DNA of 64,000 nt from a phage. The notes beneath the pieces were generated by a model. The model saw nothing but the letters and a program-made list of their open reading frames with translations, did no database searches and had not been told where the DNA came from. Shown here piece after piece: positions 1,818 to 63,931 of the stretch. The stretch lies in NCBI GenBank assembly GCA_019326865.1, contig GCA_019326865.1_4101.1. One strand, written 5' to 3'. Each line of letters opens with the position of its first letter. Within the stretch, counting starts at the first letter, position 1. Both the position numbers and the translations under genes were made by a program.

Positions 1818-3307
1818 TCTGTATCCTTATGTATACGATATGCAGTATTTGGTTTAACTGCGTCATGTAATGGGACTTTATTATCACTATTTACGAACTT
1901 AGTAAGTGCCAAGTCTGCACCTTCCCATGGTTTTCTACCACCATAATCAAAAATAACCCATGAATTCTTTGTTGCATTGAATTCCCATAACGTAACTGGT
2001 GTATAATCGGTGCGATAAAAATAATCCCCATCAACAGCATCAGTAGGGAACATATTTCCTTCTGGAACAGTTCCTCTAGCGGGTGGAATTTTCGGTCGAT
2101 AATCCTGTTGGGCATCAATATTTCCATATACACTATTTGATGAGAATGGTTCATTAACATAGGTTACTTTTGGCTCGCCCCATTTATCATCATTGTACTG
2201 AAAAATGTGTGGTTCTTTATAAAAAATACAAAAATCTTCAATATTTTGCGGTGGGATATCACTTGTAGTATATTCTACATCACAATTTAACCATTTTTTA
2301 GCACTTTTGTCGTACTGATACAACGTATACCCAGTCACATCTGCATCATTTTCTTTAAAGAAAAAATCCCCATCCATTGGTTTTTTTGGAAAAACTGTTC
2401 CACGCTTGACTTCCAGTGAAATCCATGTATCATTGTCATACTCTTTGAGAACTGGGTACGTTTTTTTCAAAAAATACATACCATTAGCAGGTTCTTCTGG
2501 AAAATCATAACCGTTGAGCATATATTTAGATAAATCCACAGTATCGCGGCGGTCATCATACAAATGCTCGTTTGTATAATGGATATAAGGTACTTCATCA
2601 TCAGCTTGCATAATAATACGGTTCATAATATCCATTTCATTACTATAATTACTGTTTTCGGACGTACCATCGGTTGTGTTTCCATTACCATTATTTGGAT
2701 CATTTGGGTTATCTGGGTAATTATTGTTCCCCAGTAAGTCAGAGTACTCAGGTGAGTCAGTTAGTGGTTTTACTCTAAGTTTGTAAATGTGGTGTTGCCA
2801 CGTTACAGAGTAACCTTCGGCTGTACGAAATGCATCTTGTACCACATAGAAGCGATTTAGACCAGAATCTTTACCAAGTACATCATAATCACGCAAATTT
2901 GGCAATTCTATTACATCACCAGGCATGATTTTCCTGCCTAATCGTTGCATCATGGTATTGTAATGAATTGTGATGTCCATTGTGTTAAAATTAAAGAACA
3001 ACCCTGGGATTTTCAAGTCAGGGGTTGCTTCTTGGACTTGATAAACACAACTAAGTGTGATTGCTTCAAGGTTATAGCTTCGATTTGGTGTGTCTCCAAA
3101 AATTAAATCACCAATACTTGACACAACCGTACCGGAAGATGTATAATCACCGCCATATGATAAGTCATTGCTATCCGCAACTTGTTTTGGACCAACATAA
3201 GCGTAAAGCCACATGTCCACTCCACCTATGTTGTATTGTTCAGCAATTGCAGAGTCAATGAACTTGTAATCATTTGTTCTACCTTTTTTCCACATTCTAT
3301 ATGTCAT
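1814..3307 (-). CDS. virion structural protein, probable baseplate/tail component (~497 aa)
   Basis: Track ORF begins at a TTG (3319); first ATG at 3305-3307 has GGAG RBS 6 nt upstream; repeated DGDFFFK/DGDYFYR motifs; function by synteny only. Confidence 0.45.
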   Translation of the reverse strand: MTYRMWKKGRTNDYKFIDSAIAEQYNIGGVDMWLYAYVGPKQVADSNDLSYGGDYTSSGTVVSSIGDLIFGDTPNRSYNLEAITLSCVYQVQEATPDLKIPGLFFNFNTMDITIHYNTMMQRLGRKIMPGDVIELPNLRDYDVLGKDSGLNRFYVVQDAFRTAEGYSVTWQHHIYKLRVKPLTDSPEYSDLLGNNNYPDNPNDPNNGNGNTTDGTSENSNYSNEMDIMNRIIMQADDEVPYIHYTNEHLYDDRRDTVDLSKYMLNGYDFPEEPANGMYFLKKTYPVLKEYDNDTWISLEVKRGTVFPKKPMDGDFFFKENDADVTGYTLYQYDKSAKKWLNCDVEYTTSDIPPQNIEDFCIFYKEPHIFQYNDDKWGEPKVTYVNEPFSSNSVYGNIDAQQDYRPKIPPARGTVPEGNMFPTDAVDGDYFYRTDYTPVTLWEFNATKNSWVIFDYGGRKPWEGADLALTKFVNSDNKVPLHDAVKPNTAYRIHKDTE

Positions 3308-3349: not shown

Positions 3350-3377
3350 TAGACAAACCATAAGAATGTGATATAAT
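3350..3377 (+). promoter_or_regulatory. sigma70-type early promoter for ClpA-like gene
   Basis: TAGACA-N16-TATAAT with TGa extended -10. Confidence 0.5.
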
Positions 3378-3417
3378 GGTTATTAATTAGAGTGACGTGA
3401 ATCACATAGGAGAATAC

Positions 3418-5706
3418 ATGAATCTTACTCAATTGTTCAAAAAAAGCGACGAACTGGCAACATCTCTCGGTCATACATTCTTGACTATTGACCATGTAAG
3501 TGCTACAGTACTAACCATTGATAGCATCAAGAATGTGTTTGAAGATATGAATATTGATGCAGACAAATTACATAATCGCTTAATGGACTATCTTAAAAAT
3601 ACATCGATTCCACATGCTCCAAAAAGTACCCAAGATGAAGATGCCAATCGTACTTCACTACTAGTGAATCGTGTCGTACATGAGCTTTCAAAAAAATCTG
3701 TCATTGAACAACTAAAAACGGATGATTTTTCAATTGATGCATATTTTGTGTTATTTGAATGCTTGTCTTTCCCAAACACTGCACTCGAAGCTGCGTTGAA
3801 AGAAGAAGGTGTTAGTTGTACTGAGGCTGCTCGTGCACTACAGAAACATGTTGAGACACTTAATAAGGGTATCAACCTACAAAGCATTAATGATGAACCT
3901 ACTGGAGATAAAAAAGTGGCTCAACCACAACAATCATCTAAACAAAAAGGTTTGGAAGACTACACAACAAATCTAACCGCTCTTGCAAAAGAAGGAAAAT
4001 TAGATCCGATGATTGGTCGCCAAAAAGAACTGTGTGCACTGATTGAGACACTAGCTCGTAAAACTAAAAAGAATGCAATTCTTACTGGTGAAGCTGGTGT
4101 AGGTAAAACACAAATCATTGACGGACTAGCACAAGCCATCGCTGATGGTAATGTACCTGAACATCTGAAAAATGTTGAAATTCTTTCACTAAATGTTGGT
4201 GCATTGACTGCTGGTACAAAGTACCGTGGTGAGTTTGAAGAACGCATCGATAATTTACTAAAAGAACTAAAGAAACGTGAAAATACTATTGTTTTCATTG
4301 ATGAAATTCATATTATGGTTGGTGCAGGTTCTGCAAGTAATGGCTCGATGGATATGAGCAATATGTTAAAACCAGCACTGTCACGTGGTGAGATTCGTGT
4401 GATTGGTGCAACAACATACGAAGAATATCGCAAAAATATCGAGAAAGATAGTGCACTAACACGTCGTTTTATGAAAATTGACGTAGTTGAGCCGACAATT
4501 GATGAAACTCGTACAATTGTTAATGGGTTAAAGTCAACTTATGAAAAATTCCATAATGTTGAGTTTACCGCCGATGCCATGGATGCTGTAATTTCTCTCA
4601 GCGATAAGTTCCTGAAGAATAAACACTTCCCTGATAAAGCAATTGACCTAATGGATGCTGCTGCGGCTAAAGTTCGTTCACGTGACAATAATAGTAAGCT
4701 TATTACTGCAAGTTTGGTTCAAGAAGTGGTTGCTGGTATTGCAAACTTAGATATCAATGTGGTTGCATGTACCGAAAGTGAACGTATGCGTAATCTTCCA
4801 GATGCACTTCGTTCACGTGTATATGGTCAAGATGAGGCTATTCAAAAATTAGTTGATAACGTAATGGTTGCTCGTGCGGGTTTGCGTGATAAATCAAGTG
4901 TTCAGGGTGCATTTATGTTTGTTGGTCCATCTGGAACTGGTAAAACTGAAATCACCAAAGCATTAGCTGACGCAACTGGTTCTGAACTTATTCGTTTTGA
5001 TATGTCAGAGTTTTCACAAGAACATACAGTATCTAAACTTATCGGTTCACCTCCAGGGTATGTTGGTCATGATTCTGGTAACGGATTACTGCTAGATAAG
5101 ATTGAACAGTTCCCTAATGCAGTTCTGTTACTTGATGAAATCGAAAAAGCAGATCGCAAAGTACTACTAACCTTTCTACAGGTTCTGGATGAAGGTCGTT
5201 TGACTGGTTCACAAGGAAAAACTGTATATTTTAATAACGTAACTGTTATTATGACTACAAACCTTGGTGCAGCAGATTCAACTAAACGTAGTATTGGTAT
5301 GAGTGGCAGTGAAACTGCACAAGATAAAGCAATCAAAGCATTTTTACCACCTGAATTCATTAACCGTATTGATAGTATCGTTACGTTTAATGAACTAAGC
5401 CGTGAAGCAATTGATAGTATCATTGACAAATTTATTGGAAGCTTAAATGACCAAGTAAAAAGCCGTAATGTAAAAGTTACTCTCACAAAAGCAGCACGTG
5501 AATGGTTGGCACAAAATGGTGTTCAAGCTGGCATGGGGGCACGACCTATGAAGCGTACAATTGAACAAAACATTCGTGTTCCACTAGCGAAAGAAATGTT
5601 GTGTGGAACGCTAGTGAATGGTGGTAACATCACATTTGATGTTATTAATGGTAAAATTGGCATCAAGCCAAAACGCACCAGAACAGTTGAAAAATCACTA
5701 GCCTAA
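3418..5706 (+). CDS. ClpA-type AAA+ unfoldase (two nucleotide-binding domains, Clp N-domain, IGM ClpP-docking loop)
   Basis: Walker A GEAGVGKT and Walker B IVFIDEIH (NBD1); Walker A GPSGTGKT and Walker [10 protein letters not shown] (NBD2); no long ClpB-type middle domain; SIGM tripeptide loop at nt 5293-5301 in the position of the ClpA IGL loop; track start 3397 is GTG, ATG 3418 has GGAG RBS. Confidence 0.85.
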
Positions 5707-5715
5707 AAAGAAAAA

Positions 5716-5740
5716 GGAGAGCACAATGCTCTCCTTTTTT
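5716..5740. terminator. bidirectional rho-independent terminator
   Basis: GGAGAGC-acaat-GCTCTCC then T6; A-run on other side. Confidence 0.75.
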
Positions 5741-19254: not shown

Positions 19255-19325
19255 AATTTATTCCTTTAAATCAGTAAAGTACTAGTTCAGTACTGGGAAT
19301 TATATAGAAATATTTATTCAAAAAG

Positions 19326-26316: not shown

Positions 26317-26344
26317 GGGACAAATCACTTTTTAGTGCTATAAT
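26317..26344 (+). promoter_or_regulatory. sigma70-type early promoter for gp55-like gene
   Basis: GGGACA-N16-TATAAT preceded by GTGC. Confidence 0.55.
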
Positions 26345-31018: not shown

Positions 31019-31046
31019 GAGACAACTTTAAAGTTTGTGCTATAAT
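31019..31046 (+). promoter_or_regulatory. sigma70-type early promoter driving non-coding island
   Basis: GAGACA-N16-TATAAT preceded by GTGC. Confidence 0.5.
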
Positions 31047-46047: not shown

Positions 46048-46075
46048 GGGACACTTTAAGAAGAACTGATATAAT
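46048..46075 (+). promoter_or_regulatory. sigma70-type early promoter
   Basis: GGGACA-N16-TATAAT (TGa). Confidence 0.5.
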
Positions 46076-49997: not shown

Positions 49998-50025
49998 GAG
50001 ACAAGCATCATTTTTGAGATATAAT
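49998..50025 (+). promoter_or_regulatory. sigma70-type early promoter for clamp-like gene
   Basis: GAGACA-N16-TATAAT. Confidence 0.45.
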
Positions 50026-53585: not shown

Positions 53586-59936
<6,351 letters not shown>

Positions 59937-62326: not shown

Positions 62327-63931
62327 ATGATTGATATATCCAAATTATATAATATGATAAAAGACATTCCCCATCCTAATTCTCGTAAAAAAATACTAAT
62401 GGGGGAAATTTCCGAAGAAGATATGATGGAGTTCGGAACAACTGAATTAAAGCAGATTGATTATTGTATAATGAATAAATTAAAACATGTACCATTAGCA
62501 CCGTGCGGGGAAAATAAAAAATACCATAATGGAAAATATTTGAATGTATGTGAAAAATATAAACTTGGTGACAATCATTCATGTATAGTCTGTCATGAAA
62601 ATAAGACAAAAGAAACATTATCTAAAATGAAGAAAACTTCTTTATCTAAATATCAAACTGAATTTCCTAATCAGTCCATTGATGTAAAAAGAAAGATACG
62701 AGAAAATTCTAATTTTACTGAAGATGAAAAAAACGCAATTAATGAAAAGAAAAAAGAAACATCATTGAAACAATTCGGTACTGAACATCCAATGAAGAAT
62801 AGTACTGTTAAGTTGACACAAATTCAGTCCAGAAAAAAGACACAAGAGCAAACTAACAACAAAAGAATTAAAACTTTAATGCAGAAAAAAACATTAAATG
62901 TTTCTGAAAATTTGGATAAATCAAAATATGAAATTGTTGAATTGCGATTGGGGACTAATGTAAAAAGTACATTCAGGTGTTTACAGTGTGGACAACAATT
63001 TGATGCATTAAGTCATTGGGGATGTAAAGTTGTTTACTGTCCACAATGTGATGTTTCACCTATGCGTTCTAATATGGAAAATGATGTTGTATCTATCATA
63101 AAAGAAATAGAACCAACTATTGATATTGAACTTAATAATAGAAAAATCATAAAACCAAAAGAAATAGATATATATTTGCCTAAGTATAATTTGGGTATAG
63201 AAGTTAATGGAATGTACTGGCATTCTGATAAATTTAAGTCAGAAAACTATCATCAAGATAAAGTTAAAGCTGCTATGTCATCTGGAATGAAATTATTAAC
63301 AATTTATGATTATGATCTTTCAAAAAACAAAGATGTAATAGTTTCAATGATAAAAAATTCAATGAATAAATCTTCTTTTAATGTTTATGCAAGAAAATGT
63401 GAAATTAAAGAAGTACCTAAAGTTGAAGAACGTAATTTCCTAAACACCTATCATATTCAAGGATTTGTTGGTTCAAATATTTGTTATGGTTTGTATTATA
63501 ATTGCGAGTTAGTATCATTAATGTCTTTTGGTAAGCCAAGATTTAATAAAAATTTTGAATATGAAATTATACGATTTTGTTCAAAAGGTAATGTTGTTGG
63601 TGCAGCAGGGAAGTTATTAAAACATTTTGAGATAACTATCAAGCCTAAGTCATTGATTACATATGCTGATTTACGATATGGATATGGTAAAACTTATGAA
63701 AAAATAGGTTTTGAATACAAATATATTACTAAACCTGGATATTTTTATGTTAATGGAAAGGGTGATGTGGTTACTCGATATCAAGCACAAAAACATAAAC
63801 TTCTGAAGAAATACCCAGAATATCAAAATGAGACAAACATTACTGAATATGATATAATGGGGTCTGAAGGATATTTAAAGATATATGATTGTGGAAACGC
63901 TGTGTATGTGAAGGAATACAACAATGAATAA
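62327..63931 (+). CDS. homing-endonuclease-like protein B (paralog of 41388-42983)
   Basis: Same architecture: CxxC pairs, IDIYLPKYNLGIEVNGMYWH nuclease motif, conserved C-terminal domain; ATG 62327 with AGGA RBS just after the uvsX terminator. Confidence 0.55.
   Translation: MIDISKLYNMIKDIPHPNSRKKILMGEISEEDMMEFGTTELKQIDYCIMNKLKHVPLAPCGENKKYHNGKYLNVCEKYKLGDNHSCIVCHENKTKETLSKMKKTSLSKYQTEFPNQSIDVKRKIRENSNFTEDEKNAINEKKKETSLKQFGTEHPMKNSTVKLTQIQSRKKTQEQTNNKRIKTLMQKKTLNVSENLDKSKYEIVELRLGTNVKSTFRCLQCGQQFDALSHWGCKVVYCPQCDVSPMRSNMENDVVSIIKEIEPTIDIELNNRKIIKPKEIDIYLPKYNLGIEVNGMYWHSDKFKSENYHQDKVKAAMSSGMKLLTIYDYDLSKNKDVIVSMIKNSMNKSSFNVYARKCEIKEVPKVEERNFLNTYHIQGFVGSNICYGLYYNCELVSLMSFGKPRFNKNFEYEIIRFCSKGNVVGAAGKLLKHFEITIKPKSLITYADLRYGYGKTYEKIGFEYKYITKPGYFYVNGKGDVVTRYQAQKHKLLKKYPEYQNETNITEYDIMGSEGYLKIYDCGNAVYVKEYNNE

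Follow-up and report, generated by a model that had tools for sequence, protein, structure and literature searches.

A ClpA-type unfoldase gene within the tail/baseplate block of an Asteriusvirus jumbo coliphage and its probable phage-encoded ClpP partner

To date, the closest described relatives of the gene considered here come from two sources: the bacterial Clp/Hsp100 ATPases and the Clp genes of other phages. Escherichia coli ClpA (structures 1KSF, 6W1Z and 7UIV) has the domain order N-domain, D1, D2 and D2-small and no middle domain. ClpC and ClpE of Firmicutes and Actinobacteria are likewise double-ring unfoldases with a ClpP-docking loop, and the short middle domain of ClpC binds MecA. 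ClpB and Hsp104 share the class-I Clp/Hsp100 core and the N-domain fold with the phage protein, but their middle domain is a long coiled-coil and a docking insertion is lacking, and the phage protein is the opposite in both respects. Among phages, Agrobacterium phage Atu_ph07 carries ClpX, ClpA, ClpB, ClpP and ClpS; ClpA was called 'highly conserved in most Rak2-like phages' (Attai et al. 2018), and the ClpA/ClpX chaperones of jumbo-phage subgroup 2.2 were proposed as possible translocases or assembly aids (Iyer et al. 2021). Here, a clpA-like gene is compared with these systems. It lies on the plus strand of a phage DNA of 64,000 nucleotides (contig GCA_019326865.1_4101.1 of assembly GCA_019326865.1), and this whole stretch is referred to as the window. 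The reading that is favoured, at a probability of about 0.6, is that the product is a hexameric ATP-driven unfoldase made from an autonomous unit that host RNA polymerase transcribes, and that the peptidase docked to it is most probably the phage's own ClpP.

The source phage is an Asteriusvirus jumbo coliphage (121Q/PBECO4-type, 'Rak2-like'), and the gene itself is already known from public annotation at 95–99% identity, under the names ClpA-like or Clp ATP-binding subunit. The nearest record is Escherichia phage UE-S1 (96.7% nucleotide identity over clpA, 99.1% amino acid identity in the protein), followed by 121Q, PBECO4, phAPEC6 and others at 95% and Klebsiella phage RaK2 at 75% amino acid identity. 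The same locus with the same neighbours is occupied by 121Q gp581 ('ClpA-like protein'), RaK2 ORF069 and UE-S1_530, and PHROG 4871 ('ATP-dependent protease') gives a full-length profile match of 1028 bits (residues 2–755 on profile positions 11–760 of 764). No substantive difference separates the present gene from any of these four. In the literature searched, the existing records and comparative papers on this ClpA go no further than the name, and the UE-S1, fEgEco12 and Sharanji papers contain no discussion of Clp. A chance origin of the reading frame is of no concern, given its 762 codons and the E-value of the ClpA match. The likely start codon, which a Shine-Dalgarno sequence precedes, is also the one used in the 121Q and A4 annotations. 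The UE-S1 annotation (L001:20079) places the start 26 codons downstream of this ribosome-binding-site-backed ATG, and the first N-domain helix is thereby lost.

A first-pass annotation, made from the sequence alone, had proposed two AAA+ modules, a Clp N-domain and no ClpB-type middle domain, and profile searches bear this out. On the 762-residue protein, Pfam recognises Clp_N (one repeat; 22.0 bits, with the cutoff at 20.7), AAA (D1), AAA_lid_9, AAA_2 (D2) and ClpB_D2-small. The best NCBIfam model is ClpA TIGR02639 (E = 1e-227, 757.9 bits), which aligns in a single stretch over residues 3–740; with the NCBIfam models for ClpB, ClpV, ClpK and ClpG, the match always falls into two stretches that are separated at the position of the middle domain. 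The equivalog cutoffs are missed (757.9 against 993.15 bits for TIGR02639 and 650.3 against 1350 bits for NF008263), so that the protein is a divergent homologue of ClpA, its best-scoring family, rather than a certified equivalog. Among solved structures, E. coli ClpA (1KSF) is the best match, again in one stretch (18–741 on 21–734, E = 2e-178), and the lengths agree (762 and 758 residues). The alignments to ClpC, ClpB and Hsp104 structures break into two at the point of the middle domain. The Walker A/B, sensor, Arg-finger and Tyr pore-loop residues are intact in both AAA+ modules, and the Walker A/B motifs, Arg fingers, sensor-2 and the KYRG and GYVG pore loops all have their likeness in E. 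coli ClpA; the tip of the D2 helix-loop-helix is at the aligned position.

Structure prediction is in line with this architecture. The AlphaFold2 (AF2) model of the full-length protein has a predicted local distance difference test score (pLDDT) of 80 and contains no coiled-coil or extra helical insertion between D1 and D2; among the segments of low confidence are the linker at 156–176 (pLDDT < 50), the D2 pore loop and residues 624–630, which form the docking tip and for which a low score is expected of a flexible loop. A Foldseek search with this model returned ClpC and ClpA hexamer subunits, with D1–D2 46–47% identical to ClpA, and its best matches are ClpC/ClpE-type double-ring unfoldases. 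Since the full-length structural search cannot separate ClpA from ClpC, the discrimination between the two rests on the sequence profiles. The N-domain, modelled separately (pLDDT 86, predicted template-modelling score 0.83), retrieved in its 50 listed matches Clp/Hsp100-type N-domains or close relatives throughout, plus one ClpC2 C-terminal domain. Ranked by E-value, the N-domains of ClpC1 and ClpC come first; the highest template-modelling score is that of a ClpS-bound ClpA N-domain (1R6O_B, 0.68/0.74). Sequence identity in these structural matches is only 13–19%, and it is 16–21% to the N-domains of bacterial ClpA.

It is very improbable that the protein is instead a ClpB/Hsp104-type disaggregase whose middle domain had gone unnoticed. 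ClpB profiles do reach 635 bits, a score that any class-I Clp ATPase would be expected to give, but ClpB, ClpC and Hsp104 align in two stretches where ClpA aligns in one from end to end, the AF2 model shows no coiled-coil between D1 and D2, and an insertion for ClpP docking is present. This candidate is refuted by the domain, alignment and model evidence taken together. Judged by its sequence, the protein is of the ClpA type and not of the ClpB type, as it has no middle domain and carries the D2 helix-loop-helix insertion.

The tip of that insertion was examined by alignment. The first-pass annotation had placed S-I-G-M where ClpA has IGL, and the two align exactly, S-I-G-M on S-I-G-L; it had also equated this loop with the pore-2 loop, which was mistaken, as the docking loop is a separate element. 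The third residue, Met, falls outside the canonical F/L of the [LIV]-G-[FL] tripeptide, while the insertion and the position of the tip are aligned. E. coli ClpA reads IGL-I-H at this point and the phage protein IGM followed by S-G, that is, L619->M, I620->S and H621->G in the alignment. I620 and H621 are the ClpP-contacting residues that follow the tip in E. coli ClpA (Lopez et al.).

To place the tip in its family, homologues were searched among 5.8 billion proteins and 121 were aligned, of which 113 (P0001–P0113) form a phage clade. Identity runs from 91% down to 54% within the clade, and the bacterial ClpA sequences follow only after a gap, at 45% or below; many members lie on contigs of 330–380 kb. 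E. coli ClpA scores 598 bits, about equal to the best bacterial sequences (592–600 bits). Given this gap, and given that E. coli ClpA scores like the other bacterial proteins, the gene represents an old phage lineage and was not copied recently from the host. Practically no variation is seen in the Walker, sensor, Arg-finger and pore-loop motifs of the 121 aligned homologues (sensor-2 GARPM in 121/121), the AAA+ cores are well conserved in the clade (mean column entropy of about 0.8–0.9 bits) and the helix-loop-helix insertion is retained in all 113 members. The tip is another matter: by column entropy, its first and third positions rank at the 87th and 93rd percentile within D2, and the clade shows IGM, MGM, LGM, LGL, IGV, IGF, VGF and IGL as well as IGA, IGG, LGG, IAG, MSM, MNM, MSI and LNI, against IGF, VGF or IGY in the bacterial sequences of the alignment. 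The first residue is hydrophobic in 110/113 and the third (M/V/F/L/I) in roughly 85% of the clade. Met is the commonest third residue (59/113), so IGM is typical of the clade and not a peculiarity of one phage. This hypervariability of the tip alongside conserved ATPase and pore motifs was not found described in the literature searched. The N-domain is the most variable folded domain of the clade (1.61 bits, about twice the AAA+ cores), a pattern that would be expected of a domain that chooses substrates or adaptors.

The absence of a ClpP gene from the window had led the first-pass annotation to propose that the unfoldase may recruit host ClpP. The absence itself stands, as tblastn for ClpP, ClpS and HslV homologues gave nothing below E = 0.1 in the window; it is an artefact, because only 64 kb of the genome are in view. 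When relatives were scanned beyond the corresponding region, ClpP was found, in UE-S1 and 121Q among others, and the conclusion drawn from its absence fails for this lineage. A reading of the whole 121Q genome identifies gp464 as a true ClpP. Its score is 141 bits against Pfam CLP_protease (profile positions 2–179 of 182) and 152–155 bits against the NCBIfam ClpP models, which is below their cutoffs, whereas the head-maturation model related to ClpP gives 51 bits. In alignments to solved ClpPs, the catalytic Ser, His and Asp are all matched, and a T4 gp21-like prohead protease is annotated separately in 121Q. The equivalents of Ser97, His122 and Asp171 are kept in 68/68, 68/68 and 67/68 of the clade ClpPs, the single exception being an alignment gap. 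The UE-S1 homologue lies at 197,166–197,858, about 86 kb from clpA. ClpP occurs in all complete Asteriusvirus and RaK2-type genomes among the top ClpA matches, in GAP32, CBB, XbC2 and Erwinia/Serratia jumbo phages, and in 36/38 of the top-scoring ClpA records, the two exceptions being genome fragments. Even a contig with the non-glycine tip MNM carries it.

As in Atu_ph07, unfoldase, peptidase and adaptor genes are scattered over the phage genome. The Asteriusvirus set differs in being smaller: it comprises a single ClpA, a single clear ClpP and one each of a very weak ClpP-like and a marginal ClpS-like protein, with no ClpX or ClpB detectable in 121Q. A tblastn search of the whole 121Q genome with the D1 and D2 modules found no second Clp/Hsp100- or ClpX-like unfoldase, so ClpA is the only in-genome candidate partner for the phage ClpP. 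The marginal ClpS-like protein is gp48, which at 24.7 bits just passes the Pfam ClpS cutoff of 23. At the positions of the N-degron-binding residues D36 and H66 of E. coli ClpS, Pro and Asn are found in gp48.

Two further 121Q proteins were considered as peptidases and set aside. As a second ClpP, gp473 ('ClpP-like', L007:22420-23025) is weak: its Pfam score of 16.7 bits is below the cutoff and no ClpP appears among its PDB sequence matches. It does align to the clade ClpP profile, with an SPGG motif and Ser and His at the catalytic columns. For gp475 (L007:23356-23949), 'ClpYQ-like' is not credible at only ~19 bits to HslV. Separately, 121Q carries scattered proteostasis- and translation-related genes (gp47, gp48, gp49, gp58, gp457 and gp615; gp48/gp49 at L003:34461-35623). 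This set includes the ClpS-like gp48, of 181 residues with an N-terminal extension of ~65, two proteins called DnaJ-like, of which one in fact matches the KTSC domain, as well as two GroES-like/chaperonin proteins and one IF3 homologue.

In E. coli ClpAP, the docking cleft of ClpP is lined by L23, L48, F49, A52, Y60, Y62, F82, I90, M92, F112, L114 and L189 (Lopez et al.). These positions were compared between 121Q gp464 with 67 clade homologues (68 in all) and 44 bacterial-type sequences; the numbering of the E. coli ClpP reference reproduces S97, H122 and D171, and the two key cleft substitutions are visible independently in the PDB alignments of gp464. F82 is replaced by N, S, G or C in 64/68 clade ClpPs and the position is almost never aromatic (Tyr in RaK2), L114 is replaced by Gly in 64/68, and R192 by E, K, Q or P. 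The bacterial-type ClpPs have an aromatic residue at 82 in 39/44, Leu114 in 40/44 and Arg192 in 32/44. With the ClpP cleft changed, and with I620/H621 of ClpA turned into S/G behind a Φ-G-M tip, both faces of the interface depart from the bacterial standard. No description of this remodelling of the ClpP cleft across the clade was found in the literature searched. The phage protein differs from E. coli ClpA in its likely partner as well, a phage ClpP with an altered cleft. It is tentatively suggested, at less than even odds, that the two form a self-contained, 're-keyed' ClpAP in which a Φ-G-Met tip without Ile-His and a cleft without F82, L114 and R192 have drifted together.

The same observations bear on the proposal that host E. 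coli ClpP is the docking partner of the phage ClpA, be it the sole one or one besides the phage ClpP. The host protease would then be redirected to substrates chosen by the phage, in competition with host ClpX and ClpA. I-G-M does keep the Φ-G-Φ character of IGL and IGF and is aligned exactly with the IGL of ClpA, the D1–D2 core is 46–47% identical to that of E. coli ClpA, and host ClpP is there from the first minute of infection, whereas the phage ClpP must first be made. However, the premise that there is no phage ClpP is false for the lineage, and the residues that contact E. coli ClpP are lost (L619->M, I620->S, H621->G). Tips such as IGG, IGA and MSM in the relatives are hard to reconcile with an invariant host cleft, and a clade that is at most ~45% identical to bacterial ClpA holds no recent host copy tuned to host ClpP. 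Docking on the host peptidase is therefore considered unlikely.

The own promoter that had been assigned to clpA in the first-pass annotation is there, as TAGACA-16-(TG)ATATAAT, and it is conserved. It is identical in UE-S1, 121Q and A4, and RaK2, GAP32 and a metagenomic contig (L014) have TGnTATAAT and a -35-like hexamer at the same place, within diverged flanks. The pattern GACA-N15-18-TATAAT occurs nine times in the window against 1.78 expected, and none of 100 shuffles reached nine. All nine sites are on the plus strand, with a 16-nt spacer in 8/9 and TG one base before TATAAT in 6/9. Besides clpA, the class precedes a sigma-factor gene, the DNA-polymerase region, a 243-residue reading frame, and gp613-like and recA-region genes, and xGACA-N16-GTGATATAAT is found upstream of both clpA and 121Q clpP. 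By association, this class would support an 'early or middle, host-RNAP type' of expression, so that the label 'early-type' given at first receives indirect support. One site of the class (3118-3147, plus strand) is a perfect 12/12 sigma70 consensus, TTGACA-18-TATAAT, within the coding region of the minus-strand gene for a 501-residue virion protein. Its distance to clpA, which lies downstream, is ~270 nt; it may have arisen by chance or may serve as a second promoter of the gene. For the sites at 31021 and 63832, no reading frame of at least 50 codons starts within 200 nt downstream; the latter is only ~140 nt from the end of the window. The text of the PA5oct RNA-seq paper does not mention Clp, and an Rfam scan of the window at gathering thresholds found no RNA families.

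The setting within a baseplate module and the convergence with a giant gene, both noted before, were confirmed; like the promoter and the terminator, the tail/baseplate setting is kept in each of the five relatives that were examined. Upstream of clpA, on the minus strand, lie a T4 gp15-like tail-sheath stabiliser gene (PF16724) and the gene for the 501-residue virion protein; downstream lies the convergent gene for a 3331-residue virion protein, and beyond it come baseplate genes of the gp6-like, gp25-like and gp5-like kinds. The proposed bidirectional terminator, a hairpin readable on both strands, is shared by clpA and the giant gene; an equivalent hairpin is kept in RaK2, GAP32 and L014, and it is annotated as a terminator in UE-S1. 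The order NUDIX, gp15-like, a protein of ~486–501 residues, ClpA (plus) and the giant protein (minus) is found in RaK2, GAP32 and the metagenomic relative too. The virion proteome of phAPEC6 includes a giant protein of 381.9 kDa, a wedge protein and gp248, a 'proximal tail protein' of 51.7 kDa that is taken as the gp15-like protein from its size and the gene order. ClpA is absent from that proteome, though its two neighbours are present.

This neighbourhood invites the view that the protein is a ClpP-independent chaperone or remodelling unfoldase, acting for example in the folding or assembly of the adjacent 3331-residue virion protein or of tail and baseplate parts. E. coli ClpA alone can remodel RepA. 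The fixed gene order, from Asteriusvirus through RaK2 and GAP32 to the metagenomic relative at 62–75% identity, would fit such a role, as would a giant neighbour that is a virion protein and a tip that varies at positions 1 and 3, with Gly or Ala at position 3 in several lineages. A role in virion assembly or translocation is also what Iyer et al. (2021) proposed. However, a docking insertion of ~30 residues is kept in 113/113 clade members, ClpP co-occurs throughout, and the gene has its own promoter of the sigma70 type, of the class found at replication and transcription genes, and runs antisense to the late structural genes. Fixed gene order is general in these genomes and no specific sign of a functional link. 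ClpB-type chaperones do without a ClpP-docking insertion. This role is judged somewhat less probable even than docking on host ClpP.

According to the favoured reading, that of an unfoldase paired with a phage ClpP, the protein would form a ClpA-type hexameric double ring of a phage lineage, in which ATP hydrolysis is predicted for both rings. Substrates would be drawn along the axial channel by Tyr pore loops, KYRG in D1 and GYVG in D2, and the D2 helix-loop-helix would place its I-G-M tip in the docking clefts of a heptameric ClpP. The partner would be the homologue of 121Q gp464, the pair would make up a phage-encoded ClpAP protease, and the diverged ClpS-like protein may assist it. Host RNA polymerase would transcribe, presumably early, an autonomous unit consisting of a sigma70-type extended -10 promoter, clpA and the bidirectional terminator, opposite in orientation within the late tail/baseplate block, and the product would be a non-virion, intracellular enzyme.

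Several points weigh against this reading. The ClpP of the present phage, beyond the 64 kb, is inferred from UE-S1 and all other relatives, and in UE-S1 the two genes, about 86 kb from each other, share no operon. The RefSeq name for the phage ClpP is 'head maturation protease'. Mass spectrometry of Pectobacterium phage CBB virions found ClpP (CBB_104) by one peptide at 4.5% coverage, with ClpA unlisted, which may be carry-over or a real low-copy association with the virion. The tips IGG, IGA, LGG, MSM and MNM of some sublineages are expected to dock poorly, which suggests that function may not depend strictly on ClpP. An equally good explanation of the remodelled cleft would be that loops of the IGF/IGL type are not bound by the phage ClpP at all. 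Strict covariation of tip and cleft was looked for in seven matched ClpA–ClpP pairs (121Q, A4 and five more), too few for statistics, and is unsupported, as the cleft of A4 (LGL) is the same as that of 121Q (IGM). It is from the promoter type that an early timing is derived. In the literature searched, experimental work on phage ClpA or phage ClpP was not found, nor was a description of the divergence of the interface.

Table 1. Coordinates of the clpA-like gene, its parts and its transcription signals, with the other sites of the same promoter class in the window.
Feature	Position	Strand	Basis or remark
clpA-like open reading frame	3397..5706	+	open reading frame as called
clpA-like gene, 762 residues plus stop	3418..5706	+	likely start ATG 3418
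Shine-Dalgarno AGGAG	3408..3412	+	5 nt before ATG 3418
sigma70-like promoter TAGACA-16 nt-TATAAT, TG extended -10	3350..3377	+	sequence match, conserved in relatives; class member 3352-3377
N-domain, residues 1-150	3418..3867	+	Clp/Hsp100 fold, strongly diverged sequence; Pfam, AF2, Foldseek
Flexible linker, residues 151-190	3868..3987	+	low pLDDT (156-176), high column entropy
AAA+ module D1, residues 191-445	3988..4752	+	Pfam, conserved motifs
D1 Walker A	4087-4110	+	conserved motif
D1 pore loop KYRG	4219-4230	+	conserved motif
D1 Walker B	4294-4311	+	conserved motif
AAA+ module D2 with small domain, residues 446-745, sensor-2 GARPM	4753..5652	+	Pfam, conserved motifs
D2 Walker A	4924-4947	+	conserved motif
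D2 pore loop GYVG	5056-5067	+	conserved motif
D2 Walker B	5128-5151	+	conserved motif
D2 helix-loop-helix insertion, residues 615-645	5260..5352	+	aligned to E. coli ClpA IGL loop
Predicted ClpP-docking tip I626-G627-M628	5293-5301	+	S-I-G-M on ClpA S-I-G-L (1KSF alignment)
Bidirectional intrinsic terminator, 14-bp stem, A-run and T-run flanks	5710..5740	both	terminator scan, both strands
Other promoter-class site	3120-3147	+	GACA-N15-18-TATAAT
Other promoter-class site	26319-26344	+	GACA-N15-18-TATAAT
Other promoter-class site	31021-31046	+	GACA-N15-18-TATAAT
Other promoter-class site	46050-46075	+	GACA-N15-18-TATAAT
Other promoter-class site	50000-50025	+	GACA-N15-18-TATAAT
Other promoter-class site	59834-59859	+	GACA-N15-18-TATAAT
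Other promoter-class site	59911-59936	+	GACA-N15-18-TATAAT
Other promoter-class site	63832-63858	+	GACA-N15-18-TATAAT

Elsewhere in the window, the reading frame of the terminase large subunit (55855-58512, plus strand) encodes 885 residues against 545 in 121Q. An in-frame insertion of ~1 kb relative to 121Q, at about 56117-57135, carries LAGLIDADG_3 and Hom_end homing-endonuclease domains (residues 283–363) ahead of the Terminase_6N match (429–636), and it looks like an intein absent from 121Q. Conversely, 121Q gp584 ('protein associated with group I intron', 314,100-314,864), which lies between the gp6-like wedge and gp25-like genes, has no counterpart in the window, where the alignment jumps at about 19269-19297.

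The finding raises the question of what use a complete AAA+ protease is to a virus whose host already has ClpAP and ClpXP. Divergence on both docking faces leads to a concrete, testable hypothesis, namely that of an orthogonal phage ClpAP pair. If the pair is indeed re-keyed, the phage ClpA would prefer the phage ClpP, and host ClpX and ClpA would be unable to use it. The phage would then possess an insulated degradation channel, available early from host-type promoters, for host takeover, counter-defence or the timed removal of phage proteins. Such a pair would be relevant to the way in which phages take over host proteostasis, and it may offer a natural example of an insulated unfoldase–peptidase system for the engineering of protein degradation.

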